The notes beneath the pieces were generated by a model. The model was not told the origin of the DNA, did no database searches, and worked only from the letters and a program-made list of their open reading frames with translations. This document shows, piece by piece, positions 6,770 through 46,924 of a stretch of 64,000 nt of DNA. Numbering within the stretch: the stretch's first letter is position 1; each line of letters starts with the position of its first letter. Where the stretch lies: the NCBI GenBank assembly GCA_963666055.2, contig CAXWPH010000002.1, forward strand, positions 194,759 through 258,758. The letters are read 5' to 3'. Source of the DNA: Acidobacteriota bacterium (GTDB lineage: Bacteria > Acidobacteriota > UBA890 > WLXD01). The position numbers and the translations under genes are program-made.

Positions 6770-6960
6770 CATGGTATAAGCGTAGACAGTTCGACCTTGT
6801 GTCGGGAAGCGGGTGCGAATCCCGCGCTGCCGCGCAACTGTGATCGGGGACGAAAGCCGCCCGAGGAGCGGCCGCATCGTGCGGTCGGCTCCGGAATGCC
6901 ACTGGTAGCACCGGGAAGGTGGCGGCGAGTAGGACGATCCGAGAGCCAGGAAACCGAACC
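6770..6960 (+). promoter_or_regulatory. cobalamin (B12) riboswitch
   Basis: Core GGGAAGCGGGTGCGAATCCCGCGCTGCCGCGCAACTGTGA (about 6814..6843) and B12 box GCCACTG (6898..6904) followed by GGGAAGG. It sits directly upstream of a btuD/C/F-like operon. A GC hairpin (CCGGCC ACC GGCCGG, about 6959..6973) and the RBS GGGAAGGGA lie just before ATG 6997. Confidence 0.85.
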
Positions 6961-6996
6961 GGCCACCGGCCGGCCCTCGCGGGAAGGGATGCCACG

Positions 6997-7791
6997 ATGG
7001 CGCAGGCACGTCCGTCTAGACCGGCAGCGGACCTCGCCGCGAGCCGACCCGGCGTATCGCTGCGTGCCGACGGTATCGTCTTCGGCTTCGACGGCCCGCT
7101 ACTGCGCGGCGTCGATCTCCGGGTCTCCGGCGGCGAGTGCATCGCACTGCTCGGCGCCAACGGTGCCGGAAAGACTACCTTACTGCGGCTTCTGGGCGGG
7201 CTGATCGAGCCACACGCTGGCCAGGTCGAGGTCGACGGCATCGCGTCTCCGCGTCTGTCGCACGAGCAACGCGCCCAGCGCATCGGCTACTTGCCGCAGC
7301 GTATCCCGGTGGCGACCGGATTCGCTGTCTACGAGATGGTGCTGATGGGGATGTACGCTCTGCTGCCAGCGCGCGGCTGGGAGAGCCAGCGCGAGTGGCT
7401 GTCGGTGGGACGTGCGCTGCATCGCGTGGGGGCGCGACGCCTGATGCGGCGTCCGTTCGACGAGCTTAGCGGCGGCGAGCAACGCCGCGTGCTGCTTGCC
7501 CGCGCCCTGGTGGCGCGACCGGGCCTGTTGCTGCTCGACGAGCCGCTCGCTGCCCTCGATCCGGGATTCGTCCTCGAGCTGACTGCGACGCTCGCTACCC
7601 TGAAGTCGTCGGGCGTGGGCATGGTGATCTCCACTCATCGGCTCTCGCTGGTGCGTCAGCTCGCCGACCGGGTGGTTGTGCTTCGTCGCGGTGAGGTCTT
7701 GGCGGCGGGGACGCCGAGTGCGACTCTGAGCCCCGTCTTGCTCGACGAAGCGTATTGCACGGATGCGTTTTCCCGTGCCGATGCCGGATGA
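6997..7791 (+). CDS. ABC transporter ATP-binding protein, cobalamin/Fe3+-siderophore (BtuD/FecE) type
   Basis: ORF track 6919..7791; the first 26 codons overlap the riboswitch, so I start at MAQARPS (6997). Walker A GANGAGKTTLL, signature LSGGEQRRVLLARAL, Walker B LLLLDEP. Confidence 0.9.
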   Translation: MAQARPSRPAADLAASRPGVSLRADGIVFGFDGPLLRGVDLRVSGGECIALLGANGAGKTTLLRLLGGLIEPHAGQVEVDGIASPRLSHEQRAQRIGYLPQRIPVATGFAVYEMVLMGMYALLPARGWESQREWLSVGRALHRVGARRLMRRPFDELSGGEQRRVLLARALVARPGLLLLDEPLAALDPGFVLELTATLATLKSSGVGMVISTHRLSLVRQLADRVVVLRRGEVLAAGTPSATLSPVLLDEAYCTDAFSRADAG

Positions 7792-8810
7792 GTCGTCGCG
7801 CATTGTTGCCACGACGTCGACGCTCGATGCTATTGGTGGGCAGTGGAGCGGCGTTGGCGATTGCCCTGTTGCTCGCCCCGACGGTGGGTTCCACGTCGGT
7901 GAGCATGCAGCGCGTATGGGCCGATCCGTTCAGCTGGGCCGACAACCCCGATGCGGCGGTGTTCTTCGTGGCACGACTGCCACGAGTACTACTGGCGTGC
8001 ATGGTTGGAGGAACGCTGGCTCTCGCTGGAGCAACGTTCCAGTCGCTGCTACGCAACCCGCTTGCCAGCCCCTACACACTCGGTGTTACTGCCGGCGCGA
8101 CGCTGGCGGCATTCCTGGCCATCCGCTTTTCTCCAAGGCCCTCGTTGGCGGAGTTCTCAGTGCCGCTGCTGGCGCTGGCGGGCGCCCTGGCAACCACCGG
8201 ACTGTTGCTGTTGCTGACGTCGCGCCGTAGCGATCTGCCGCCGACCGTGCTGTTGCTCGCCGGTGTGACGCTCAACTTTACGATCAGCGCCGGTGTTCTG
8301 TTGTTGCAGTACTTCTCGGATCACGCCGAGACGGCGCGCATGATCCGCTACCTGATGGGAGATCTGGACGCTGCCACGTACCGCATGCTGTTGCTGCTGG
8401 CGGTGGTGAGCCTGCCGGGTTGGTTAGCGTTGCTACGTGCCGGTCGCACGCTGAATCTTCTGAGCCTCGGTCCCGACGAGGCGCGTGCGCAGGGAATCAA
8501 TGCCGCGGCGGCGACGCGCAAGGGCTTGCTGTGGGCATCTTGGGTCACCGGTTTGGCGGTGGCCGTGGCGGGGCCGGTGGGCTTCGTCGGGATCCTCGTG
8601 CCGCACGCCGTGAGGCTGCTCGGAGGGTACGACTATCGCATTGTGTTGCCGGCATCGATGCTCGGCGGCGCGGCGTTTCTGATCGCCTGCGACACTGCCG
8701 CACGCCTGCTACTGGCGCCGGTGGAGCTGCCCGTGGGCATTCTCACTGCGTCCCTCGGTGGCCCCTTCTTTCTCATGCTGCTGCTGAGCCGGCGGATTCG
8801 CCATGCGTAG
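7788..8810 (+). CDS. FecCD/BtuC-family ABC permease
   Basis: ATGA overlap with the ATPase stop (start MSRRALLPRRRRS). About 9-10 TM segments. Family-typical motifs LRNPLASPYTLGVTAGA, GPVGFVGILVPH and GILTASLGGPFFL. Confidence 0.9.
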   Translation: MSRRALLPRRRRSMLLVGSGAALAIALLLAPTVGSTSVSMQRVWADPFSWADNPDAAVFFVARLPRVLLACMVGGTLALAGATFQSLLRNPLASPYTLGVTAGATLAAFLAIRFSPRPSLAEFSVPLLALAGALATTGLLLLLTSRRSDLPPTVLLLAGVTLNFTISAGVLLLQYFSDHAETARMIRYLMGDLDAATYRMLLLLAVVSLPGWLALLRAGRTLNLLSLGPDEARAQGINAAAATRKGLLWASWVTGLAVAVAGPVGFVGILVPHAVRLLGGYDYRIVLPASMLGGAAFLIACDTAARLLLAPVELPVGILTASLGGPFFLMLLLSRRIRHA

Positions 8811-9657
8811 GGGCGGTGCCTTCCGGTGCATGGGGCTGCTCGGTGTCATCCTGCCACTGTACGTAGTGCCTTTGGAGTTGCAGGCGCCACCTCAGCGGGT
8901 CGTCTCTCTGGTACCGGGTGCCACCGAGGTACTGTTCGCGATCGGCGCGGGCGAGCGCGTCGCCGGCGTGAGCAGCTTCGATCACTGGCCACCCGAGGTC
9001 GAGCGGCTTCCCCGCCTAGGGGGTCTGATCGACCCGGATCTGGAGGCGATTCTGACGCTGCGGCCCGATCTGGCGATCATCGACCCGTCGCAGAGCTCGC
9101 TGCGGCGTCAGCTGGCACTGAGTGGGATCGCTACGTACGAGTATGCCACCGCCGATGTGGCTGATCTGTTGCGCAACATGCGGGCGTTCGGAGAGTTGCT
9201 CGGCCTATCAGACGGCGCCGCCCGGTCTGCAGACGAGCTGAGCGCCGACCTCGACGCCGTTCGCGCTCGCTACGCTTCCGACGATCCGCCGAACGTCCTG
9301 ATGGTATTCGGCCGGCGCGATGGTAGCTTCGCCGAGCTTTGGGTAAACGGCGGCGTCGGCTTTCTCGAAGAGCTTACCGCCATCGCCGGTGGCCGCAACG
9401 TCTTTGGCGATGTGGAGCGTCCAGGGTTCAAGGCAGGGCTCGAGGCGGTCATCGCGCGTGTTCCCGACGTCGTCGTGGAGCTTCGCACCGACGGTCAGGA
9501 TGCCGTGCCGACGGCGACGCTCGAGATGGAATGGCGAACCTTGCCGGGGTTCGCGAATGTCCGGGTGGTGACGCTCGCCGCGGGCTGGATGCTGGTGCCG
9601 GGTCCGCGCGTCGCCGAAGCCGCACAGGTGCTGGGCGAGCGGCTGCACGGGCGTTGA
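8803..9657 (+). CDS. periplasmic substrate-binding protein, BtuF/FhuD class (Peripla_BP_2)
   Basis: Signal-like N-terminus, then RVVSLVPGATEVLFAIGAGERVAGVS...LEAILTLRPDLAII. Overlaps the permease stop and is the third gene of the riboswitch-controlled operon. Confidence 0.85.
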   Translation: MRRGGAFRCMGLLGVILPLYVVPLELQAPPQRVVSLVPGATEVLFAIGAGERVAGVSSFDHWPPEVERLPRLGGLIDPDLEAILTLRPDLAIIDPSQSSLRRQLALSGIATYEYATADVADLLRNMRAFGELLGLSDGAARSADELSADLDAVRARYASDDPPNVLMVFGRRDGSFAELWVNGGVGFLEELTAIAGGRNVFGDVERPGFKAGLEAVIARVPDVVVELRTDGQDAVPTATLEMEWRTLPGFANVRVVTLAAGWMLVPGPRVAEAAQVLGERLHGR

Positions 9658-9692: not shown

Positions 9693-10742
9693 CTACCGCG
9701 CCGCCGCAATACGCTGACCAGCCCTGCGCTCCGCCAGACGGGTCGTTGACTCACCGCTGGCAAGCGATTCCTGCAACAGTTCGCGCGCCGTGTCCGCCAG
9801 TCCCTCGAGCAGCGCTTCTTGGTCGCTGCGCCCGTGGAAATCGCAGACTCCCAAGATCACCGCTCCCGATGAGGAAACGACGTCTGGCACGAACAGGATG
9901 TCGCGCTCTTTGAGCACCGCCTCCACCTCTGGCGCCGCGAGGATGTTGTTGGCAGCGCCGCACACGGCCCAGGCGCGCAGCTCACGCGCCGCCGCGCTCG
10001 TCAGCAGGCCGCCGTCGGCGCAAGGGGCGAGAAGATCGATGTCGGCGCGCAAGAGCTCAGCCGCCGGTACGACGGTTCCTCCCACGGCCTCGGCGGTTCT
10101 CCTCGCGGCGTCCTCGTCGAGGTCGGCGACGACTGGCTGCGCTCCGGCAGCAGCGAATGCCCGTGCCACCGCGTCGCCGATGCTGCCGCACCCCTGAACG
10201 CCGATGCGCAGTCCCGCCAGACCTGGTCGTCCGGCGATCCCCACGCAGGCGCGTGCGCAGCCCTCGACTCCTCGGGCAACCATGACCGCCATATCGGTCT
10301 CGTCGGTGCGCACCCAACGGCTCCGGGAGGCCATGATCTCCAGGTCGGCGCGTGATGTACCGAGGTCGCCGGCGGTCATGAACCTGCCGCCCATCTCTTC
10401 AACCCGCTGACCCAGTATCGAGAAGGCTGCTGTTCGATCGAGCTCGGGACGGTCCATTACCACCATCTTGGCGCCGCCGGCGTCGACCCCCGCGAGGGCG
10501 CACTTCAGGGTCATGGCGCGCGCCAGGCGTCGGGCATCGTCGGCCGCGTCCGCTGCCGATTCGTAGCTCCAGGTTCGCGTGCCGCCGGCGGCGGGGCCGA
10601 GCGTGGTGTCGTCGATTACCAGAAAAGCGCGCAGTCCCGAAGCCGCGTCGGTAAAGACCGTCAGCTGTTGCGCTCCGCTGCTTTCGAGTTGTGTCAGCAG
10701 CGATTCCATTTCTGCGCTCATAGTCGATGCATCCGGCGACAC
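9693..10742 (-). CDS. Leu/Phe/Val dehydrogenase-family amino acid dehydrogenase
   Basis: GPAAGGTRTWSY...ARAMTLKCALAGVDAGGAKMVV (catalytic Lys box) and the NAD Rossmann motif RIGVQGCGSIGDAVA. Confidence 0.85.
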   Translation of the reverse strand: MSPDASTMSAEMESLLTQLESSGAQQLTVFTDAASGLRAFLVIDDTTLGPAAGGTRTWSYESAADAADDARRLARAMTLKCALAGVDAGGAKMVVMDRPELDRTAAFSILGQRVEEMGGRFMTAGDLGTSRADLEIMASRSRWVRTDETDMAVMVARGVEGCARACVGIAGRPGLAGLRIGVQGCGSIGDAVARAFAAAGAQPVVADLDEDAARRTAEAVGGTVVPAAELLRADIDLLAPCADGGLLTSAAARELRAWAVCGAANNILAAPEVEAVLKERDILFVPDVVSSSGAVILGVCDFHGRSDQEALLEGLADTARELLQESLASGESTTRLAERRAGQRIAAAR

Positions 10743-26416: not shown

Positions 26417-29400
26417 TCAGAAGATGTGGCCGATGCCGAAATGGAAGCGCCCGCCAGGGGCGTCGGGCAGATGTGAAAGGTCGCTGAGGCGCACGCCGTA
26501 GTCGAGCCGCAGCGTCAGGTATGGGGTTACCAGCCGTATCCCCAGCCCGGTCGAGAGCTTCAGTCGTCCCAGGCGTATGTCAGAGGCCGTCGCGAAGGCA
26601 CTGCCTGCGTCCAGGAAGGCGACGCCGCGAATCCAGCGCCAGATCGGAAACCGCGCCTCTTGATTGAGCACCAGAACGGCGTTGCCGCCGGGGACGAAGG
26701 TGCCAAAGAAATCTGTGCCGCCAACGGTGCCATCCGGGTAGCCGCGGAGAGAGGTCGAACCACCGGCTACGAAGCGCTCGCTGCGTGGTAGCTGCGTCGA
26801 TGTGGGATCGAGACTGATGCCGCTGCCGAAGCGAATCGCGCTGGCGAAGGTCAGTCGGCCAAGGCTGAAGAACGCATATTGTTTCAAGTGCAGCTTGCGG
26901 AACAGTAGCTCCGACCCGAGCCGGGCCGGCGCCCATTCGAGGCTGGCGCTCTGGAACAGTCCGCGGCTGGGTTCGAGCCGATCGTCGCGGGTATCGTGGA
27001 TGATCGTCGGCACCAGACGGGCCGAGGTTACCGGCTCGAGTTGAAAGTCCTGGCCGACCAAGGTCGAACGAGCGCGCTTCAGGCTGTAGCTGTACCCGAC
27101 CGTCAGCGACGACGACAGGCTGAGGCGTTGCTCCAGGGCGAACTCGGTGTTGTCGACGCGGGTGGTGAAGAAGCCCTCGGTCTCGCTGCCTGAGCGCTCG
27201 CCGATCAGCGCGGTGCGTACCGGTGCTCCGAAAAGCCCGTGGAAGCCGAGCACACCGCGAATCAGTCTGTCCTTGCCGCGATAGCGGGCCGTCACACTGA
27301 GCTCGGCGGGCAGGCCGAGCAGGGCGCTGTGGCTCACCGTGGCGGCAACGCCCGCTTGTGTCTCGCGTTGATCCTCTAGGGTTTCGTCGCTCAACAGCTG
27401 AACTCCGTAACGTATCCGCAGGCGCGGCTGCTCCTCGACCTCCACACGCAGGACGACCGGTTGGCGCCCGTTGCTGGCCGGGCCACTATGTTGGACTTCC
27501 AGCTTGATGCGCTCGAACACGCCCGTAGCATAGAGGCGCCGCCTCGCCGCCTGGAGATCGCGCAAGACAAGAGGCGAGCCGCGTCGAGCCCTGACCGCGC
27601 CGGCGACGACCGAGCGGCGCACGCGTTCGAGGCCATCGATGCGCACATCCGTGAGGATCTGCTGCGGCGCTTCGTCGATATGCATCACGACGTCGACGCG
27701 GGAAGCTTCCGCGCTAGCCTCAATGGTTGCTCTTACGGTGGTGCCGTTGTGGCCCCGTTGGAGGTAGGCCTCGAGTACGGCGTCGACAGCCATGGCCAAC
27801 TCGCCGCGGTCGTAGGCATCGCCGGGCCGCGTTGCCAACACTTCGCGCAACGCCGCCTCGCCGACTGCCGCATTGCCGGCGAAGCTCACTTGGCCGAGCC
27901 GATAGCGATGCCCTTCGTCAATTTCGATGCGCATGCGTGCCTCGTCGCCGTCGATCTCGGGCCCAGAGGCCTGCACGACGGTGTCAAGCCAACCGCGCTC
28001 GACGTAGAGGTCGCGCACGGCGGACGCCAGCGCGTCCTGTTGTGTCCAATCGGTTGCCGCGAGCCCTTGCTCACGCAAGCGGCGGCGAATGGTGTCCGGG
28101 TCCAGGCCGGCGTTGCCGACTATGGCGGATTCACCTCGACGGTATCGCTCGCCTGGGTCGAAGCGCAGGAGGATCTCCTTGCGGGCTCCATCGGCGATTA
28201 GCTCGACAGCCACCGCGGGGCGCACGTGACCGCGCCCAGCCAGGTAGGCACGCACGATCTGCCGCATGTCTTCGAGAAGGAACTCGGTCAGGACGCTGTC
28301 TCCCCACGTCTCGAGCAACTCCTGACGCACGCCGTTCGGCAGGTTGCCCTCCACCGTGAGCACGGTTTCAGGGCCACGATCGATGGCGTACGTCAGGTCG
28401 ATGCCGGTGAACGAGCGCGGGTCCGTGCCTGCTGGCGGCGAGCGGCGGGCTCTGATGTCGACCTCCAGATATCCCCGCCGGTGGTATAGGCGCAACAAGC
28501 GGTCGCGGTCCTCCTGCCAGCGGAGGAAGTCGAAGCGATCGCCTGAGCCGACTCGCAACTCCCGCCGCAGGACATCCGCCGTGTAGCCCGAGCTTCCTTC
28601 GAATTGCACCGAGCGTACTCGCGGAGCGGTGCGGCCGGCACTGGCGCCACGTGTGTCGCCGCCCAGCACCAACTGATGCTGGAGCTCGACTGAGCGCGTG
28701 CCGTCGTCGAATGTGCCGCCGCGCAGCGCCAGACCGAAGGGAAGGCGCAGGGTTCCGATCCAGCTGCGCTCGTCGGTGTTGGTGAGGTTTTGCGAGAACA
28801 CCAGGTCGAACGTAGTCCCAATGCTCCTGGTAAGCGTGAGACGCGAGGTCAGGTCGGTATCGCGCGGAAACAATTCGCTCTGGGCTGCCGCGGCTACGCC
28901 GCCGCGCTCGAACCGCACCGACTCGAACCCCAGCTGGCGAACCGCACCGGCCAGATACTGGCCGGTGAGTAGGTCGAACGCTTGCTCCGCCAGTACCTCG
29001 CGGCCGGCGTTGCCGGCCGCCGCCACAGTGCGTCCGGTGGCCATGAGCGACAGCACGTCGCCGGAATCCAGACCGGATTCGGCGCTGGCTTCAACGATGG
29101 GGTTGAAGGCGCTGCCGGTGAGCAGAACGCTGATCTGCTCGCCACCGATCTCGGCACGCGCGGCGATGTTGAGCGTCGGTGCGACGCGGTTGGTCTCGGC
29201 GAACTCGATGATTCCTAGATCGACACTGTAGGCGTTGCCGGCGAGGCGTACGATGCCGCCCTCGCGCACCGTCATCCGGCCCAGCACGCCGGGGCGCGCG
29301 AACGTGCCGACGATCTGGAGGTCGACGGCTAGGCCGAGCTCTGCGTAGGGGGTGTCGATACGGAGGTCGTCAACCGTGCTGACGCGTATGTCGTAGCTCA

Positions 29401-32400
29401 GGTCGTCAAGCGGCGTGGGCGAGGCGGACGCACGCGCTTGGGTCGCGGCCGAGGCCCCCAGCAGGTCGGCCGCGAGAGCGGCGTCGGTGCGATAGCCACC
29501 CGCCAGCAGGCGTATTTCGCCAAAGGCCCGGAGGCTGCCCTGCGGCGACGCGCTGATGGTCACGTCCGCGTCGCCGAGCGCCCGACCGCCGCCGCCCTCG
29601 ACCACGATCGAGCGTGCGGTGATCCGGGCGAGCCCGGTGGGGCGCATGGGATCGGCCAGGTCGAAGTCGAGAAACAGCATCGCCTCGCCACCGTTGACGA
29701 TGCCGTGTAGCCCGTCGGTGTGTATCTGGGTGTCGGTGATCGTCAGCGTGCCGTTGACGTCGCTCACCACGACCTGCGGATCAGCGACAATAAAACCGAC
29801 GTCCGTGAGTACGATACGTCCGTCGAAGCTGGGCCGTGTCGCCGTGCCGGTGATTTCGAGTGTGGCGTGTGCGCCCCCCTCGACTGCCCCAGCCTTGATC
29901 ATCGGCACGATCCAGCCGAGCTGCAGCTGTGACTCGAGCCGCAAATCGAGCTGCTGTCGATCACCGAGCTCGATTGCGCCCGTCACAATCAAACTGACTT
30001 CGTCCCCACCCGGCCGCGTCCATATCCAGTCGACGATACGCACTACTCCGTCTTCCAGGCGCAGTCGTGTCGGTCGAAGCTGGGACACTGTGATGCCGTT
30101 GCTGCTGAGCCTCAACGAGTCCAGCTGGAGATCTGCTCGGGCGTCGGCGAGCTCCAATGTGGGCATAGCCACCTGCAGCGACAAGGTGGCCTCGCCGTCG
30201 AGCTCGGCGGTCAGCTCGGGACCCAGGAGCAACGCTAGCTCGGCGGCGCTTACGGGGCCGAGCCGAGCCCGCAATACTGCCGGCTCGGGTGCCGGCCGTT
30301 CGGTGTCTCCGACAAGCAGGGCCAGCGGGATCTCTGCATCGGCTTCCAGCTCGGCGCCTTGCCAGCGCCCTCGCAACTCTCCCAGATGCAAGCCGCGCCC
30401 GTCGACCGAGGCTTGCAGCTGTACGCCTTCGAGCGTCGTTGTGTTGTCGAGCTGTACTTCGCCGTCGACGATTCGAACTGATCCCTCGGGTTGCGGCTCC
30501 AACAGCGTACCGCCGACGTGCAGCTCGGCATCAAGATCTCCGGACAACACGACCCGTCGCGTGTCGGGCGCGCCGGTGGCGAGCGTCAGCCCCATCGTGG
30601 CCAGGTCAGAGAGCCGCGAAAGGTCTCCGCGCAACCGGCCGTGGAGACCCGGCAGGGCGGGATCGCTGCCCAGCACACCGGCAACCGATAGGTCGAGGTC
30701 GCCGACGCGCAGCGCCAAGTCCTCGATGCTCACCTCGGTCGGACTCCACATCACCCGTCCGGGAATCACGCTGCGAACCGGGAATCGTGGTAGGTCCACG
30801 TACAACGACCAAAGGTCGACCACTATGGTCGATGTCGTAAGATCGACGCCGAGAGCGACTTCGGCGCGGGCCGATTCAATGTAGGCGAGCTCCGGCCGAT
30901 CACCGAGGTCGCCGGGTGCCGGCAGATCAAGCTCCCCCAGGAGGTCGATGTGCTTGCCGCCCGGGTCGATTACTCCGCTGACCTTTATCCGGTTGTTGCC
31001 GGCACTGGCAGTCAGTTCGTCGATGCGAATGCCGTGCGTGGCGGGCGACAAGCGAGCCCGCGCATCAATGGGTACGCCGCCGCCGATGCGAATGGCGTGC
31101 GCGTCGACGGTGCCCTCGATTCCCGGGAGAGGTAGTAGCCCCTGGAACGTCAGGTCCCAATCAAGCGATCCGCTGATGCCACCGCCGGCGACCAGTCGCT
31201 CGCCCAGCCGCACAGCGTCGAGGGCGGCTTCGAGATCGGTCACATGGCCACGTACTCGTCCTGCGACGTGGCCACTGGCGTACAGCTCCAGGTCGGCTTC
31301 CATGGTGCCGCCAGGGAACTGCACCGACGCATCACGCAGGGTGATCGAATCGCCGCTTGTCGCGATGTCGGCGGCCGCCGTCAACCAACCCGCAGCGCCG
31401 AAACGAAGCTGCTCGACCCGAGCGTGCCCGGAGATCCGCGGTTCGAGCAAGGTTCCGGTGACAGCGAGCTCCGCCGTTGCTTGCCCATCTGCCGTGGCAA
31501 GCGCCTCCAGGAGATCGGGTGCAACGTCGCTGAGACGACGAGCCACCGAGCCAACGTTGTCGACGGTGAGGTGTGCCGTCCCGTCGAGAGTGCGGCCCTC
31601 GACAGCACCCGTCAGCTCGGCCCCGATCCACAGCCCCGCAGCTACGTCGACGTCGATGCTGGCGCGCCACACACCGGCGGACAAGACGGCCTCCAGGCGT
31701 CCATCGAGCGGTACCGCGTCCGCGTCCGGCGAGCTCTCGTTGAAGCTCATCAGCAAGGACGCGGTGGTGTCTGCGACTGCCGGTGCCAGCCCAGGCCACT
31801 CGGCGTGCGCCTCACCGCTCAGCCGTGTGGCGGGAACGATCCAGCCGGAGCCCGGTGCTGCGGCGAGTAGCCGTACGGGATCGACATCCTCCCACCTCAC
31901 TACGAAGTGGCTCACCGTGCCCGCCGCGAGGCCGATGTGCAGGTCACCGGTGAGATCGCCGCCGCCGAGTTCGGCGCGCAGCGCATCGATGCGGATCGCC
32001 TGCTGGTCGGCCTGGATGTGACCGCGCAGTCGTCGCAGCGACACCCCCCTCGATGACGCCGTCTCGATATCCAGCATCATATCTACAGTCGGCGCCGGCG
32101 CCGGGCCGCTTAGCGGCCCCGCCACCGACAGCGCGCCGCCGGCGACGTCGAGCCCGACAAGTTCGCCTAGTGTGTCCAGCAGGACTTGCGTCCGGACCTC
32201 GAGCGCCAGCTCGCGGTCGGCAAGCAACCGTTCGATGGTGCCGTCGATCTCCAGGCGGGCTGCGGCGCTGTCGAAGCGCAGCTGGTCGATGCCCAAGTTG
32301 CGCCCGTCCCAGCTAAGCTGGCCTCCGGAGAGTTCGATCTGCGCTTGGCGGTCGGCGATGCGCAGACTTGCCGCACCCAGCATCTCGAGCTGTGGCTTTA

Positions 32401-32914
32401 TCGCATCCCCGAGATCGAGCCGGATGTCGCCGGCGTCGAATTCATAGCCCGCCGCTGCATCGTGCCACTCGATTTGCAGCTCGGAGATACGCAGTCGCTT
32501 CACCGGCACCGGCGCGGCGACACTCATTCCGCCACTCTCGAAATTACTGGTACCGTCTGCGGCCACGAAGACGGTGAGGCGTGGCCTTCTCAGCTCGATG
32601 TGCTGGAACGACAATCCGCGCCAGACGGAGCTCCACGGCAGATCGAGGGTGAGCTCGTCGGCATCGAAATACGGGCGCTCCTGGCCCGGAGTGCGCAGTT
32701 GTAGCCCGTGCAATCGAAACCATAGTGTCGGTAGCCGGTAGTCGAGCCGATCAGCATGCACGCCCCCTTCGGGGGCGATCCGTGCCAGCACGGCAGCGAG
32801 CACGCGCGCCCGCGCCCACGGCGTGTGCAGGGCGGCGATTCCGGCGACCGCCGCTAGAGCCGCCAGAGCACAGAAGACCAACAACCGGCGGCGGCGACTC
32901 GACATGCGTATCAT
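26417..32914 (-). CDS. TamB-like (AsmA N-terminus ... DUF490 C-terminal module) fused to Omp85/BamA-TamA-like (about 5 POTRA + beta-barrel) protein
   Basis: One uninterrupted ORF (track 26417..33049). Likely start is MIRMSSRRRRLLVFCALAALAAVAGIAAL (32914), avoiding the divergent gene at 32946. DUF490-like ...ISVLLTGSAFNPIVEASAESGLDSGDVLSLMATGRT...VELQHQLVLGG ends near 28660. POTRA repeats run from RVRSVQFEGSSGYTADVLRRELRV (about 28621). The barrel has RFVAGGSTSLRGY, FLDAGSAF and a terminal GRFHFGIGHIF. Confidence 0.85.
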   Translation of the reverse strand: MIRMSSRRRRLLVFCALAALAAVAGIAALHTPWARARVLAAVLARIAPEGGVHADRLDYRLPTLWFRLHGLQLRTPGQERPYFDADELTLDLPWSSVWRGLSFQHIELRRPRLTVFVAADGTSNFESGGMSVAAPVPVKRLRISELQIEWHDAAAGYEFDAGDIRLDLGDAIKPQLEMLGAASLRIADRQAQIELSGGQLSWDGRNLGIDQLRFDSAAARLEIDGTIERLLADRELALEVRTQVLLDTLGELVGLDVAGGALSVAGPLSGPAPAPTVDMMLDIETASSRGVSLRRLRGHIQADQQAIRIDALRAELGGGDLTGDLHIGLAAGTVSHFVVRWEDVDPVRLLAAAPGSGWIVPATRLSGEAHAEWPGLAPAVADTTASLLMSFNESSPDADAVPLDGRLEAVLSAGVWRASIDVDVAAGLWIGAELTGAVEGRTLDGTAHLTVDNVGSVARRLSDVAPDLLEALATADGQATAELAVTGTLLEPRISGHARVEQLRFGAAGWLTAAADIATSGDSITLRDASVQFPGGTMEADLELYASGHVAGRVRGHVTDLEAALDAVRLGERLVAGGGISGSLDWDLTFQGLLPLPGIEGTVDAHAIRIGGGVPIDARARLSPATHGIRIDELTASAGNNRIKVSGVIDPGGKHIDLLGELDLPAPGDLGDRPELAYIESARAEVALGVDLTTSTIVVDLWSLYVDLPRFPVRSVIPGRVMWSPTEVSIEDLALRVGDLDLSVAGVLGSDPALPGLHGRLRGDLSRLSDLATMGLTLATGAPDTRRVVLSGDLDAELHVGGTLLEPQPEGSVRIVDGEVQLDNTTTLEGVQLQASVDGRGLHLGELRGRWQGAELEADAEIPLALLVGDTERPAPEPAVLRARLGPVSAAELALLLGPELTAELDGEATLSLQVAMPTLELADARADLQLDSLRLSSNGITVSQLRPTRLRLEDGVVRIVDWIWTRPGGDEVSLIVTGAIELGDRQQLDLRLESQLQLGWIVPMIKAGAVEGGAHATLEITGTATRPSFDGRIVLTDVGFIVADPQVVVSDVNGTLTITDTQIHTDGLHGIVNGGEAMLFLDFDLADPMRPTGLARITARSIVVEGGGGRALGDADVTISASPQGSLRAFGEIRLLAGGYRTDAALAADLLGASAATQARASASPTPLDDLSYDIRVSTVDDLRIDTPYAELGLAVDLQIVGTFARPGVLGRMTVREGGIVRLAGNAYSVDLGIIEFAETNRVAPTLNIAARAEIGGEQISVLLTGSAFNPIVEASAESGLDSGDVLSLMATGRTVAAAGNAGREVLAEQAFDLLTGQYLAGAVRQLGFESVRFERGGVAAAAQSELFPRDTDLTSRLTLTRSIGTTFDLVFSQNLTNTDERSWIGTLRLPFGLALRGGTFDDGTRSVELQHQLVLGGDTRGASAGRTAPRVRSVQFEGSSGYTADVLRRELRVGSGDRFDFLRWQEDRDRLLRLYHRRGYLEVDIRARRSPPAGTDPRSFTGIDLTYAIDRGPETVLTVEGNLPNGVRQELLETWGDSVLTEFLLEDMRQIVRAYLAGRGHVRPAVAVELIADGARKEILLRFDPGERYRRGESAIVGNAGLDPDTIRRRLREQGLAATDWTQQDALASAVRDLYVERGWLDTVVQASGPEIDGDEARMRIEIDEGHRYRLGQVSFAGNAAVGEAALREVLATRPGDAYDRGELAMAVDAVLEAYLQRGHNGTTVRATIEASAEASRVDVVMHIDEAPQQILTDVRIDGLERVRRSVVAGAVRARRGSPLVLRDLQAARRRLYATGVFERIKLEVQHSGPASNGRQPVVLRVEVEEQPRLRIRYGVQLLSDETLEDQRETQAGVAATVSHSALLGLPAELSVTARYRGKDRLIRGVLGFHGLFGAPVRTALIGERSGSETEGFFTTRVDNTEFALEQRLSLSSSLTVGYSYSLKRARSTLVGQDFQLEPVTSARLVPTIIHDTRDDRLEPSRGLFQSASLEWAPARLGSELLFRKLHLKQYAFFSLGRLTFASAIRFGSGISLDPTSTQLPRSERFVAGGSTSLRGYPDGTVGGTDFFGTFVPGGNAVLVLNQEARFPIWRWIRGVAFLDAGSAFATASDIRLGRLKLSTGLGIRLVTPYLTLRLDYGVRLSDLSHLPDAPGGRFHFGIGHIF

Positions 32915-32945
32915 TCTGCCAAATCCTCGTTTGCGGAGTCTGACC

Positions 32946-33489
32946 ATGGAAACGGCCTGGATCGATACCCTCAGCGACGAAAGCGCCTCTCCGGAGCTCG
33001 CCAAGCTGTACGATCGTGCGCTCGACCCTGTCTCCGGCGAGCTCGACAACGTCCTCCGGGTGCACTCGCTGCACGCCGCTGGACTCAGCGCCCACCTCGA
33101 GCTCTATACCGCGGTGATGCGCGGTACACCCGGGCTGCGCACCGTCGAGCGCGAGATGATCGCGCTCGACGGTGTCGCAGTTGAACGGCTGCGGCTACTG
33201 AATCACCCATCACCGGCGTGGTTTACGCCGGCTGCTGCGCGACGACGAGCTCGCTGGTCGCATCGAGTCGAACTACCAGAATGCGGATCTCGGCGGCCGT
33301 CGCCTGGCTATGCTGTGCTTTACGGAGAAGCTCACGCTGCGCCCCTCAGAGATGCAACGCGCCGACGTGCTCGCCTTGCGTGCGGCTGGCTTCGGCGACC
33401 CGGACATTCTGGGCATCGTCGAGGTAGTCTCCTACTATGCCTACGTGAACCGCATCGCTGACGGTCTGGGAGTTGCACTTGAAGCCTGA
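32946..33489 (+). CDS. AhpD/carboxymuconolactone-decarboxylase-family 'peroxidase-related enzyme'; in-frame TGA (candidate Sec) plus one upstream 1-nt frameshift
   Basis: Frame 0 reads METAWIDTLSDESASPELAKLYDRALDPVSGELDNVLRVHSLHAAGLSAHLELYTAVMRGTPGLRTVEREMIAL up to 33167. After skipping nt 33168, frame +1 reads TVSQLNGCGY[TGA]ITHHRRGLRRLLRDDELAGRIESNYQNADLGGRRLAMLCFTEKLTLRPSEMQRADVLALRAAGFGDPDILGIVEVVSYYAYVNRIADGLGVALEA, stop at 33487..33489. This fits the AhpD core motif E-x11-C-x2-C-x3-H with TGA at the second Cys. Confidence 0.7.
33213..33231 (+). promoter_or_regulatory. SECIS-like stem-loop downstream of the in-frame TGA
   Basis: CCGGCGT-GGTTT-ACGCCGG: a perfect 7-bp stem with a GGUUU loop. 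It starts exactly 11 nt after TGA 33199..33201. Confidence 0.5.
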
Positions 33490-43506: not shown

Positions 43507-43814
43507 ACGAAGCCTCGAGTTTCAAGGCGCTGGTTGGCGTCTTGGTTGACTCATGATGCCCATGGAGTCTCGAAGTCACAAACTCCGCGACGAATGCCGT
43601 GGCTGCAGCAACGGTGTCGATCGGAGTGCGGCTTCGAGCGCTGCCTAACTTCCGGGAGTCTGAGGCAGCGAGAACTCCAGGCTCGGCCTCATTTGCCTTG
43701 TTTCCCGGCGGCTGCATATGAAACTGGCGAAACGGCCTGATCGGCTCGATGGTCGCTTTCTCCGATGCCAAGGGGTAGGTGACGACCCTTGCGCGGTAGT
43801 CTACGCGGCGTGTA

Positions 43815-43833
43815 TATAGGGTATAACCCTATA
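43815..43833. promoter_or_regulatory. inverted repeat, probable PadR operator
   Basis: TATAGGG-TATAA-CCCTATA in an AT-rich patch 30 nt upstream of the PadR start. A related half-site, CTATATATGGG, follows. Confidence 0.4.
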
Positions 43834-43863
43834 GTGTTCCACTCTATATATGGGATTTTCCTC

Positions 43864-44220
43864 GTGCGTCAGCCTGTGGATGAGCTGCTTCCCCTCACCC
43901 ATGTCGTGTATCACGTCCTCCTGTCGCTCGCTCCGGAGCCCCGACACGGGTACGGCATCATCAAGAACGTCAGCGAATGCACCGGCGGGCGCCTCGAGCT
44001 CGAGGCGGGAACGCTGTACGCGGCGATTCGGCGGCTGCGTAACGATGGACTGATCGAGGAAACTCCCGCCCCGGCCGACACAGATGCGCGGCGCCGCTAC
44101 TATGACCTGACCGGCCTGGGTCGCGTGGTGCTACGCGCCGAGTCGGAGCGTTTGGCGGAGCTGGTCGAGCTGGCACGCGCCGCACGAGTGCTCACGGTTC
44201 CGTCGGGGGGCGAGAACTGA
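43864..44220 (+). CDS. PadR-family transcriptional regulator
   Basis: THVVYHVLLSLAPEPRHGYGIIKNVSECTGGRLELEAGTLYAAIRRLRNDGLIEE...RRRYYDLTGLG. GTG 43864 preferred; the ORF-track start 43789 would cover the operator. Confidence 0.85.
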   Translation: MRQPVDELLPLTHVVYHVLLSLAPEPRHGYGIIKNVSECTGGRLELEAGTLYAAIRRLRNDGLIEETPAPADTDARRRYYDLTGLGRVVLRAESERLAELVELARAARVLTVPSGGEN

Positions 44221-44221
44221 C

Positions 44222-45946
44222 GTGTGCCGAGGTGCCTACCGTCGCCTGCTGGGATTGCTACCTGCCGATTTCCGCCGGCAGTATCGCGACGAGATGTGTA
44301 GCGTCGTGGAGGAGCATTGGCGGGTCGTCCGACGGCAGGTCGGGATGCTCGGTGCGCTGCGTTTCTGGGCTCGACAAGCGTTCGCGGTGGTGGTTGCGGC
44401 GATCGAGTCGCGGCGTCGCCGCCCGCCCGCAATGGCCTACGAAGCGAGCCTCTTGCGTCTCGCGACGGTTCAAACCGGTGATGGTGGGGGCTCGATGGAC
44501 GGCTTGGTGCAGGACTTGCGATATGCGATGCGCACGCTGCTGAAGCGGCCGGGCTTCGCGCTGGTCACAGCGGCGACCCTGGGCCTGGGAATCGGCGCCT
44601 CGACGACGATCTTCAGCGCGGTGCACGCGGTCCTGTTCCGAGCCCTGCCCTACGGCGACGTCGACCGCCTTGTCGCCGTCTACCACGAGGACATCCAGAC
44701 CGGCGAGCGCGGCAGCGGGCTGTCGGCGGCCAACGCGCGCGACCTCATGGAGCACGCCGACTCCCTGACTGCCGTCGCCGTGGCCGACCCCTACTCCCTC
44801 GATCTGGAGGTGGAGGGCCGGGCGATGAGCCTGCGCACATGGTCGGTCTCCGAAGGCTTCTTCGAGATCGCCACGGTGACCCCCTACCTTGGCCGGACTT
44901 TTGCCGCCAACGAGTACGTTGGCGATAGCGAACCCGTGGTCTTGGTGGGCTACCGTAGCTGGCTGAATCGCTTCGGCGCCGATCGTGAGTTGGTCGGGCG
45001 AACCCTGAGGCTCGACGGCCGGCCGGTGACCGTGGTCGGCGTGTTGCCGCCGGAATTCAAGCTGCCCGACGAAGCGGAGCTGTGGATGCCGCGTGCCGCG
45101 CAGTCGCACGATGAGGCCAATCGGGCCGCCGACTACATGATGGGGATTGCCCGCCTGGCGCCAGGGAGTACGCGGGCGCAGGCCGGGGCGGAGGTCGAAC
45201 GTATCGCGGCCTCGTTGTCCGAGGCCTACCCGCGCACCAACACGACAACGACGTTCCGGCTGGTGCCATTGCGCGAGGTCCTTTTTGGCGACATCCGTGC
45301 GCCGCTGCTCGTGCTCAGCGGGGCGGTCGGGTTCGTGCTGCTGATTACCTGCGCCAACGTCGCCGGTCTGATGCTGGCGCGCGGCACCGATCGTCGCCGC
45401 GAGTACGCGTTGCGTGGCGATCTCGGTGCCAGTACCGGCCGCCTGGTACGGCACATCACGATCGATAGCCTCTTCCTGGCGACCATTGGCTGCGCGCTGG
45501 GGATCGGTCTTGCCTACGCCGGTATCCAGGTGATTCGCAGCCTCGGACCAGATCATCTACCGCGCATCGACGAGATAGGTGTCGACGGGACAGTCCTCGC
45601 CTTCGCTGTGGCGGTAGCGGGTCTCAGCGCGCTCCTCTCCGGGTTGGCGCCGTCGCTGCGGTTTTCCCGCCCGGACCTCCGCGGCACCCTTACCGACGGT
45701 TCACGTGGCGCGACCCCAGGGCGCGCTGCGCTCGCACTCCGCAACGCGATCGTCGTGGCCGAGGTGGGGGCGGCGATGGTGCTGCTGGTCGGCGCCGGCT
45801 TGCTGTCGAAGAGCTTCGTCACGCTGCTCGACGAAGACCTTGGCTTCAACCCGACCAACCGGCTGGCGCTGCAGGTCTTTGCCTATGGCTACGGGGAAGA
45901 CAATGGTCAAACGCGGGCGCAGTTCGTCAACCACGCCATCGACTAA
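44222..45946 (+). CDS. ADOP-type duplicated FtsX/MacB-like permease, N-terminal part (ends at an in-frame TAA)
   Basis: LLKRPGFALVTAATLGLGIGASTTIF (TM1), a MacB-like periplasmic domain, and an FtsX bundle (LITCANVAGLMLARG...). It then enters a second periplasmic domain and stops at TAA 45944..45946. Confidence 0.8.
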   Translation: MCRGAYRRLLGLLPADFRRQYRDEMCSVVEEHWRVVRRQVGMLGALRFWARQAFAVVVAAIESRRRRPPAMAYEASLLRLATVQTGDGGGSMDGLVQDLRYAMRTLLKRPGFALVTAATLGLGIGASTTIFSAVHAVLFRALPYGDVDRLVAVYHEDIQTGERGSGLSAANARDLMEHADSLTAVAVADPYSLDLEVEGRAMSLRTWSVSEGFFEIATVTPYLGRTFAANEYVGDSEPVVLVGYRSWLNRFGADRELVGRTLRLDGRPVTVVGVLPPEFKLPDEAELWMPRAAQSHDEANRAADYMMGIARLAPGSTRAQAGAEVERIAASLSEAYPRTNTTTTFRLVPLREVLFGDIRAPLLVLSGAVGFVLLITCANVAGLMLARGTDRRREYALRGDLGASTGRLVRHITIDSLFLATIGCALGIGLAYAGIQVIRSLGPDHLPRIDEIGVDGTVLAFAVAVAGLSALLSGLAPSLRFSRPDLRGTLTDGSRGATPGRAALALRNAIVVAEVGAAMVLLVGAGLLSKSFVTLLDEDLGFNPTNRLALQVFAYGYGEDNGQTRAQFVNHAID

Positions 45947-46924
45947 ATGGAAGCGATCCCGGGCGTCCGCCGCGTTGCGCTCACCAGTAGTGTGCCCGGC
46001 GCCACCGACGGCACGGTGGCCTCGATCGAAATCGACCTGTCGTTCACGATCGAGAATCACGCCGCGCCTCCCGAAGGCCACGAACCCGAGGCGAGGGTGT
46101 CGATGGTGTCGGAACGCTACTTCGAGGTAATGGAAATCGCGGTGCTCAGCGGCCGCGGCTTCACGAGCAGTGACGATGGCCGGGCGCCGCCGGTGATCGC
46201 CGTCAATGAAGCGTTTGGTCGACGCTACTTTCCCGACAGCGATCCGGTCGGCGAGAAGCTGGCAATCGGCTTCGGTCAGCGAGCGGCGCGGGAGATCGTC
46301 GGCATCGTGGCGGATGTGAGGCCGAGCGGCTACGAGTCCGAGCCGACGCCGGAAGTGTACTTCCCGCTGCGCCAGCAAGGGACCGGCTCGCTGACATTCA
46401 TCATACAGACAGATATCGATGCGGCTCAGGTCACCAGCGCAGCCAACGCGGCGGTTTGGCGCGCCAACCCGTCGCAGGCAATCTGGGGAGCCGTCACGCT
46501 CGAGACGCTACTTTCCGATTGGCTCAAGGAGCGCAGCTTCAACCTCTTGTTGCTGGGGTCGTTCGCTCTCATTGCGCTGGCGCTTGCCGGCATCGGAATC
46601 TACGGGCTCATCAGCTTCTCGATCGAACAACGGGTCGGCGAGATGGGGATTCGCAGGGCCTTGGGGGGCCAGCACCGCGCCATCGTCGGCATGGTGCTGC
46701 GCGAGGCGGTCAGCCTGGCGGCACTCGGCGTCGTGCTCGGCGGGATCGGCGCCGTGCTGTTGACGCGTTTCATCCAGGGGATGCTCTTCGGTGTCGAGCC
46801 AACCGACCCGTCAACGTTCGTGATTCTCGCGGCGACGGCACTTGGCGTCTCAGCACTGGCGGCCACCCTGCCAGCCATCAGAGCGATGCGCATCGACCCG
46901 ATCGTCGCTCTTCGCAACCAGTGA
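45947..46924 (+). CDS. ADOP-type permease, C-terminal part (same frame, begins at the ATG immediately after the TAA)
   Basis: MEAIPGVRRVALTSSVPG... continues the second periplasmic domain. Second FtsX bundle (LLLLGSFALIALALAGIGIYG, RRALGGQHRAIVGMVL, C-terminal PAIRAMRIDPIVALRNQ). Confidence 0.8.
   Translation: MEAIPGVRRVALTSSVPGATDGTVASIEIDLSFTIENHAAPPEGHEPEARVSMVSERYFEVMEIAVLSGRGFTSSDDGRAPPVIAVNEAFGRRYFPDSDPVGEKLAIGFGQRAAREIVGIVADVRPSGYESEPTPEVYFPLRQQGTGSLTFIIQTDIDAAQVTSAANAAVWRANPSQAIWGAVTLETLLSDWLKERSFNLLLLGSFALIALALAGIGIYGLISFSIEQRVGEMGIRRALGGQHRAIVGMVLREAVSLAALGVVLGGIGAVLLTRFIQGMLFGVEPTDPSTFVILAATALGVSALAATLPAIRAMRIDPIVALRNQ

Follow-up and report, generated by a model that had tools for sequence, protein, structure and literature searches.

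Introduction

The locus described here raises two questions: whether a TGA codon at the second cysteine position of an AhpD-like gene from an Acidobacteriota MAG specifies, or once specified, selenocysteine (Sec), and whether the gene that carries it is still intact. The gene lies in a 64,000-nucleotide stretch of DNA, the whole of which was analyzed and is referred to below as the window. A first-pass annotation, made from the sequence, had presented it as an intact candidate selenoprotein gene, with TGA in place of the second Cys of a CxxC motif and a hairpin resembling a bacterial SECIS shortly downstream. The two questions receive answers of different strength: the comparative evidence for a Sec codon is very strong, while the reading frame of the window copy is broken upstream of that codon.

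The family itself is not new. The ‘AhpD-like protein’ (COG2128, CxxU) was described in 2005 as a new selenoprotein family of the Sargasso Sea, with 27 sequences and a predicted SECIS (Zhang, Fomenko & Gladyshev; PMC1088965). Three years later, in 2008, ‘AhpD-like 1’ was among the most abundant GOS families, represented by 299 sequences with Sec and 902 homologs with Cys (PMC2398784). A review of 2026 tabulates it as ‘AhpD-like protein, TIGR01926, CxxU’ (PMC13188914), and BSepDB uses the AhpD-like family as its browsing example (PMC13326102). The first-pass annotation had noted that AhpD-like proteins are among the reported selenoproteins, which is correct (PMC1088965, PMC2398784, PMC13188914); the novelty that it implied is too high for a family catalogued since 2005.

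The locus as sequenced

Direct reading of the DNA bears out every local element to which attention had been drawn: the TGA, the CGY-TGA-ITHH motif, the 7-bp hairpin, its 11-nt spacer, and the open frame beyond (Table 1). The codons run TGC (33190-92), GGC, TAC, TGA (33199-33201), ATC, ACC, CAT, and CAC, and the TGA is followed by 95 open codons (33202-33486) up to the stop at 33487-89. Exactly 11 nt (33202-33212) separate the TGA from a perfect 7-bp stem, in which CCGGCGT (33213-19) faces ACGCCGG (33225-31) across a GGTTT loop (33220-24). The core motif E-x11-C-x2-C/U-x3-H is present in the conceptual translation, its Glu at 33153-55, Cys at 33190-92, TGA at 33199-201, and His at 33211-13.

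The Glu of this motif and its C/U/H positions, however, lie in different reading frames of the window copy. The gene (32946..33489) measures 544 nt, which is no multiple of 3; the ATG is in frame 0, the TGA is in frame +1, and the +1 frame is closed by a stop at 33157-59. The TGA had been described as in-frame, but it does not share the frame of the start codon, and the vertical bar set between EREMIAL and TVSQLNG in the original translation conceals a 1-nt frame break at about 33168. Translated straight from the ATG, the gene reads ...EREMIALDGVAVERLRLLNHPSPAWF... and ...EREMIALDGVAVERLRLL..., and the motif is absent. One surplus nucleotide at 33168-70 thus interrupts what would otherwise be an ORF running unbroken through the whole gene but for the Sec codon, and joining the two gene halves requires the loss of one base between 33160 and 33171. 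Across the frame-break region (within 33150-33190), the window allele reads CTCGACGGTG. The description of the gene as an intact candidate therefore does not hold for the ORF as sequenced, which is frameshifted 31 nt upstream of the TGA, a point that had gone unflagged.

Table 1. Coordinates of the AhpD-like gene and its elements in the window, and of loci in which relatives of the gene are linked to Sec machinery.
Feature	Location	Strand	Basis
N-terminal half of the AhpD-like gene (M1..L74), ATG frame	32946..33167	+	aligns with N-termini of full-length homologs and with TIGR01926 from position 3 onward
Glu codon of E-x11-C-x2-U-x3-H, N-terminal frame	33153..33155	+	direct reading and homolog alignment
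Frame-break site, GAC against two bases in nine aligned relatives, net +1 nt	33168..33170	+	clade alignments
C-terminal half (TVSQLNGCGY-U-ITHH...GVALEA), +1 frame	33169..33486	+	62-72% identity to hundreds of homolog fragments
First Cys codon (TGC) of CxxU	33190..33192	+	direct reading and homolog alignments
TGA at the second-Cys column, putative ancestral Sec codon	33199..33201	+	TGA in 161/163 loci; aligns to the second Cys of CxxC in PDB 3C1L and 6K40
Predicted bacterial SECIS hairpin: 5' arm 33213-19, loop GGUUU 33220-24, 3' arm 33225-31	33213..33231	+	covariation, loop codon constraint, fdhF spacing and GGU position
True stop codon (TGA) of the gene	33487..33489	+	direct reading
AhpD-like Sec gene with Sec-machinery linkage	L040, 3973-8975
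AhpD-like Sec gene with Sec-machinery linkage	L057, 670-2308
AhpD-like gene with selA/selB and tRNA-SeC	L037, L051, L053: gene 10001-10528; selA/selB at about 16.6-19.5 kb; tRNA-SeC at about 1.9-2.3 kb

Family assignment and the TGA column

For profile searches, we used a conceptual protein of 180 residues, from which 1 nt had been removed and in which U was replaced by C. This protein matches TIGR01926 ‘peroxidase-related enzyme’ along positions 3-173 of its 178, scoring 126.6 bits where 81.8 are required, and the Pfam domain CMD (PF02627) with 47.9 against 23; the locus is a member of the AhpD-like (TIGR01926 / COG2128) CxxU selenoprotein family. It is not a member of NF041238 (AhpD_rel_CFYUT), a family of (seleno)proteins that is likewise AhpD-related and carries a CxxU motif: the protein scores 41.8 bits where 175 are required, and of its two halves only the C-terminal one aligns to the 357-position model.

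The core of Mycobacterium tuberculosis AhpD is E118-C130-C133-H137. In the solved homologs 3C1L, 6K40, 2PFX, 2OYO, and 2PRR, C-x-Y-C aligns exactly onto C-G-Y-[TGA], so that the TGA column is the second Cys of the AhpD CxxC. The proposal that TGA replaces this residue is upheld by the alignment to Cys homologs. P0014, with 39% identity, is a true Cys form (CPYC) at the same column.

The TGA in relatives

A protein search returned 484 relatives. Most of them, hundreds of database entries, are about 100 aa long and start with M/V-T-H-H-R-R-G-L-R-R-L-L one codon past the TGA column, a pattern typical of gene models cut short by an in-frame stop. Loci of the sister species (L165-L169, 2469-3011) are similarly called as pieces of 84 aa and 59 aa. 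Gene callers had been expected to truncate such genes, as both kinds of call bear out, and the AhpD-like Sec family is systematically mis-called in public databases, which gives the locus some relevance for annotation. Some full-length public calls, on short contigs, have W at the Sec position, apparently from TGA under an alternative code.

The DNA was compared in 163 loci, of which 160 came from scans of genome and metagenome collections, with members in Acidobacteriota, Actinomycetota, Planctomycetota, and Gemmatimonadota. The codon at the Sec column is TGA in 161 loci and GGA in the other two. At least 80 codons are open upstream of the TGA in 156 of the 157 evaluable loci, and 94-108 are open downstream in most.

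An alternative genetic code in which TGA means Trp or Gly would account for the W that stands at this column in P0001-P0004 and P0006, and for the G in P0005. The P0001 contig, however, has a plain TGA, and its listed product does not fit its standard translation, which makes a gene-caller artefact the likely source of the W; where the DNA behind a full-length call with W was read (L003), the column is plain TGA. P0005 comes from a decayed gene, and its G is genuinely encoded, by GGA. TGA is, moreover, an ordinary stop in the window and its relatives, including the stop of this very gene. Decoding as Trp or Gly is refuted.

The hairpin as a SECIS

The hairpin was examined in 145 distinct sequences, which align without gaps. 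Stem cells are paired in 92.4% of cases; with the 3' partner displaced by 1-3 columns, the figure falls to 21-56%. Pair 18-30, which joins the third positions of two Arg codons, occurs as GC (89), CG (27), GU (12), AU (7), UA (3), and UG (3), with four sequences unpaired, and pair 21-27 is broken in none (CG 136, UG 6, UA 3). The covariation score is 0.194 against 0.079 in shuffled alignments, a value reached by none of 500 shuffles. The Gly codon of the loop is GGT in 139 of the 145 sequences and GGC in none, while GGC makes up 56% of the Gly codons in window genes. Along the same lines, the Leu codon of the hairpin is TTA in the window and the sister species, which keeps a U-A closing pair opposite CGT; none of the 629 Leu codons in the sampled window genes is TTA. 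Since these paired and loop constraints fall on synonymous sites, their target is the RNA rather than the protein.

Taken as a single sequence, the hairpin is only suggestive, because its statistics are weak, and the case for a SECIS rests on the comparative data. Its folding energy is unremarkable for GC-rich sequence (z = -0.43 and -0.31), and seven of the 1,430 TGAs in the window (~0.5%) have a perfect 7-bp hairpin beginning 9-14 nt downstream. Rfam, searched at gathering and permissive thresholds, gave no SECIS-like match and only noise around the locus. The non-significant folding energy, the chance occurrence of such hairpins, and the broken frame of the window gene would all sit well with a TGA that never encoded Sec, i.e., an ordinary nonsense mutation in a pseudogene with a hairpin placed by accident. 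Against this, 161 of 163 loci, drawn from several phyla, share the TGA at one column, the frame being open both before and after it, and the covarying stem that follows has a loop constrained at synonymous sites. The SECIS-like hairpin first noticed 11 nt past the TGA is thus borne out by covariation and loop constraint, and the comparative evidence that it would serve as a conserved, covarying bacterial SECIS with fdhF-like spacing is very strong.

Sec machinery and the predicted mode of decoding

ARAGORN identified tRNA-SeC in five Acidimicrobiia loci that carry the AhpD-like gene (L037, L051, L053, L059, and L064), and tblastn with E. coli SelA and SelB found selA and/or selB in L037, L040, L051, L053, L057, and L113. 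The distance from selA/selB to the AhpD-like gene is 0.1-7 kb in five of these loci and about 1.3 kb in L113. The genes directly beside tRNA-SeC in L037 and L059 are unrelated housekeeping genes, and selA/selB lie elsewhere in the same or related loci. Over the Actinomycetota/Acidimicrobiia MAGs as a group, the AhpD-like Sec gene is found 0.1-8 kb from selA-selB and/or tRNA-SeC. Linkage of this kind was not seen in Acidobacteriota loci, and the 64 kb of the window yielded no tRNA and no selA, selB, or selD. A search of the window for other in-frame TGA genes gave one match, antisense to the TamB/Omp85 gene described below, which we judged spurious.

The association of the gene with tRNA-SeC, selA, and selB in some genomes also argues against a TGA that never encoded Sec, as does the published selenoprotein family (PMC1088965, PMC2398784, PMC13188914). 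We give that reading almost no credence; it is effectively refuted by the conservation of the TGA column and the covariation of the stem. Very strong comparative evidence for a Sec codon and a SECIS instead points to the TGA at the second-Cys column as a probable ancestral Sec codon.

In intact orthologs, expression can be rationalized as follows. (i) Decoding: the UGA at the second CxxC position would be read as selenocysteine. (ii) Recruitment: SelB with Sec-tRNA(Sec) would be recruited by the short stem-loop that starts 11-12 nt past the UGA, with G-G-U of the loop at codon +7 and the hairpin written into the codons for H-R-R-G-L-R-R. (iii) Product: the protein would be an AhpD-fold thiol/selenol oxidoreductase, for which the family suggests a peroxide-related function.

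The frame break: mutation or assembly error

At the break site, the window reads CTC-GAC-GGTG, as opposed to CTC-CT-GGTG in L004 and its species, a difference of two substitutions and one inserted base. L004, an Acidobacteriota MAG with a 3.17-Mb contig, is the closest relative in the genome collection, and its frame is intact. Each of nine aligned relatives carries just two bases here, GT in L005 and L001 and CT in the other seven, and no other member of the clade shares the frame break of the window copy. The AhpD-like frame is also intact in L005, L006, and L007, and in four assemblies of the L004 species from other samples (L165, L166, L168, and L169); together with L004, these make five intact sister assemblies, L167 being the L004 contig itself and no separate assembly. 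The change from CT to GAC, with a net gain of 1 nt, would shift the frame 31 nt upstream of an intact UGA and SECIS. Translation from the ATG, as sequenced, would bypass the UGA and join a 74-residue native N-terminus to 98 out-of-frame residues.

Apart from the break, the copy is clean. Identity between the window and L004 is 92-93% over 15 kb and about 98% in the AhpD-like gene, where 7 synonymous and 4 nonsynonymous differences correspond to a pN/pS of about 0.2. No other lesion is present: the TGA, the SECIS, and the conserved residues are intact, and the amino-acid changes specific to the window are conservative. Such a copy speaks for recent function, yet it is equally expected of an assembly error in a live gene.

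The gene might accordingly be intact and functional and its full 180-residue CxxU protein made, the extra base at 33168-70 being a consensus or assembly error in a long-read MAG. Preservation of everything but the break, under purifying selection, is consistent with this, as are the five sister-species assemblies that are intact at the break site. The contig is 3.19 Mb long (3,191,551 bp), and the names of sister assemblies follow the style of long-read assemblers and carry coverage tags of 10x-23x; this suggests long reads at modest coverage, and makes a lone consensus error plausible. On the other side, the break is the sole uncompensated coding indel in the 15-kb alignment with L004. The Pfam domain matches in the other roughly 55 genes of the window are all full length, with none truncated, which implies a low rate of indel errors in the assembly. 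The change itself, two substitutions and one insertion within 3 nt, is no homopolymer slip. We further considered a methylation-linked consensus error at the CCTGG of the intact allele, and rejected it; CCWGG conservation is 0.63 against a baseline of 0.68, without excess divergence, and no CCWGG-linked error pattern is apparent. An error of assembly is a real possibility in our estimate, though somewhat short of probable. Independent assemblies of the window's species were not found: its exact NAGPA product was unmatched, and the best hit of the metagenome scan was at <=85%.

Programmed +1 ribosomal frameshifting ahead of the Sec codon would require two recoding events on one mRNA. For the sequence as it stands, a full protein that resembles the family would indeed require the ribosome to slip by +1 between 33160 and 33171 and then to read through the UGA. 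The frame is continuous, however, in the five other clade loci of the first alignment, in further sister assemblies, and in 156 of 157 evaluable loci, and CUC-GAC-GGU contains no recognisable slippery site or stimulatory stop. We regard such a mechanism as highly improbable.

With modest confidence, we favor the reading in which the locus was a functional AhpD-like CxxU selenoprotein gene until very recently and the break is a recent, real inactivation. Between a real, very recent inactivating mutation and an assembly error, the former is slightly more likely. Four observations tilt the balance: indels are rare in the background, the change is not of the homopolymer type, another lineage of the clade has lost the gene, and a second gene of the window has an in-frame stop.

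Gene loss in the clade

A more distant syntenic ortholog (L001, 5790-6312) is a pseudogene with several lesions, and is identical in an independent assembly (L002, 1-506). At the Sec column, TGA has become GGA (Sec to Gly), and ITHH has become ITRH, by which the catalytic His is replaced by Arg. Upstream, a 1-nt insertion creates a stop at 5991-93; at the 3' end, a 1-nt deletion leads to a premature TAG at 6310-12; and the SECIS stem is weakened. The decay seen in L001/L002 indicates that the clade has undergone at least one loss of the AhpD-like gene. If the break in the window is real, the window may represent the first step of selenoprotein gene loss, in which the Sec codon and SECIS are still perfect, and L001/L002 a late stage; we see this proposal as evenly balanced. 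Were it true, one Acidobacteriota clade with an intact sister species would hold a small natural decay series, possibly tied to loss of the Sec trait.

Other features of the window

Several features of the window deserve mention in their own right. A duplicated MacB_PCD+FtsX permease (44111-46924, + strand) comes after a PadR regulator (43783-44220) and is split by an in-frame TAA at 45944-45946 within the second MacB_PCD domain (...FVNHAID*MEAIPGV...); an ATG stands directly after the stop, and the permease is either a nonsense-mutated or a split gene. The PadR-permease-esterase block is missing from the related loci L171-L175, in which FTCD, GST, and cyclophilin are adjacent.

On the opposite strand, 26417-33049 (-) holds a giant ORF of about 2,160-2,210 aa that combines DUF748/TamB with two POTRA domains and a C-terminal Omp85 barrel. 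The parts of this TamB-like + Omp85 fusion are usually separate proteins, and sister-species copies of the fusion (L166-L169) have a conserved length of 2,154-2,165 aa. In the window, the ORF probably starts only about 35-45 bp from the divergent start of the AhpD-like gene.

A cobalamin riboswitch (6803-6956, + strand; Rfam RF00174, 60.4 bits) lies directly upstream of an operon for an ABC ATPase, a FecCD permease, and a periplasmic-binding protein (6844-9657); together, riboswitch and operon have the usual make-up of a system for uptake under B12 control. At the 3' end of an M32 carboxypeptidase gene, the window has a 13-nt insertion relative to L004 (38420-38432; CTAGCACGGCCTG before CTAGCAGG), which looks like a short local duplication.

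Comparison with known systems

The AhpD-like family, its CxxU motif, and its mechanism were already known, and the window copy is an ordinary member of the family, possibly a dead one. The locus adds nothing new on Sec decoding and offers at most a neat illustration of how one Acidobacteriota clade loses a selenoprotein gene. It shows how a SECIS constrains both the encoded peptide (H-R-R-G-L-R-R) and synonymous sites, e.g., Leu TTA. In common with the published AhpD-like family, which is widespread in environmental bacteria, the window gene scores above the cutoff of the HMM family, has a CxxU motif with Sec predicted at the second Cys, and is followed directly by a putative SECIS. It differs from published members in that its frame is broken 31 nt upstream of the UGA, and its host belongs to an Acidobacteriota MAG lineage.

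Homology to the Cys-containing AhpD-fold proteins (3C1L Mlr4105, 6K40 AhpD, 2PFX, 2OYO, and 2PRR) is full-length, with E = 1e-27 to 4e-16, and the E-x11-C-x2-C-x3-H core is common to both. These structures have Cys at the second position, where the window family is predicted to have Sec. The Cys-containing homologs also lack the SECIS-encoding H-R-R-G-L-R-R stretch, as expected if the SECIS imposes that peptide.

The closest point of reference for the hairpin is E. coli fdhF. The first-pass annotation had cited an fdhF stem-loop 11 nt from the UGA with G/U in its loop, and direct comparison with the fdhF DNA, which reads TGA, 11 nt, and GGTTGCA-GGTC-TGCACC, agrees. Both systems place a short upper stem-loop within the coding sequence after an 11-nt spacer, with G and U in the apical loop, and, in fdhF as in the family consensus, GGU-CUG forms codons +7 and +8 past the UGA. 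They differ in two respects. The upper stem of fdhF has a bulged U (GGUUGCA/UGCACC), which is absent from the AhpD-like family, whose stem is a perfect helix of 6-7 bp, fully paired in the window; and the apical loop has 5 nt in the family (GGUCU; GGUUU in the window) as opposed to 4 nt in fdhF (GGUC).
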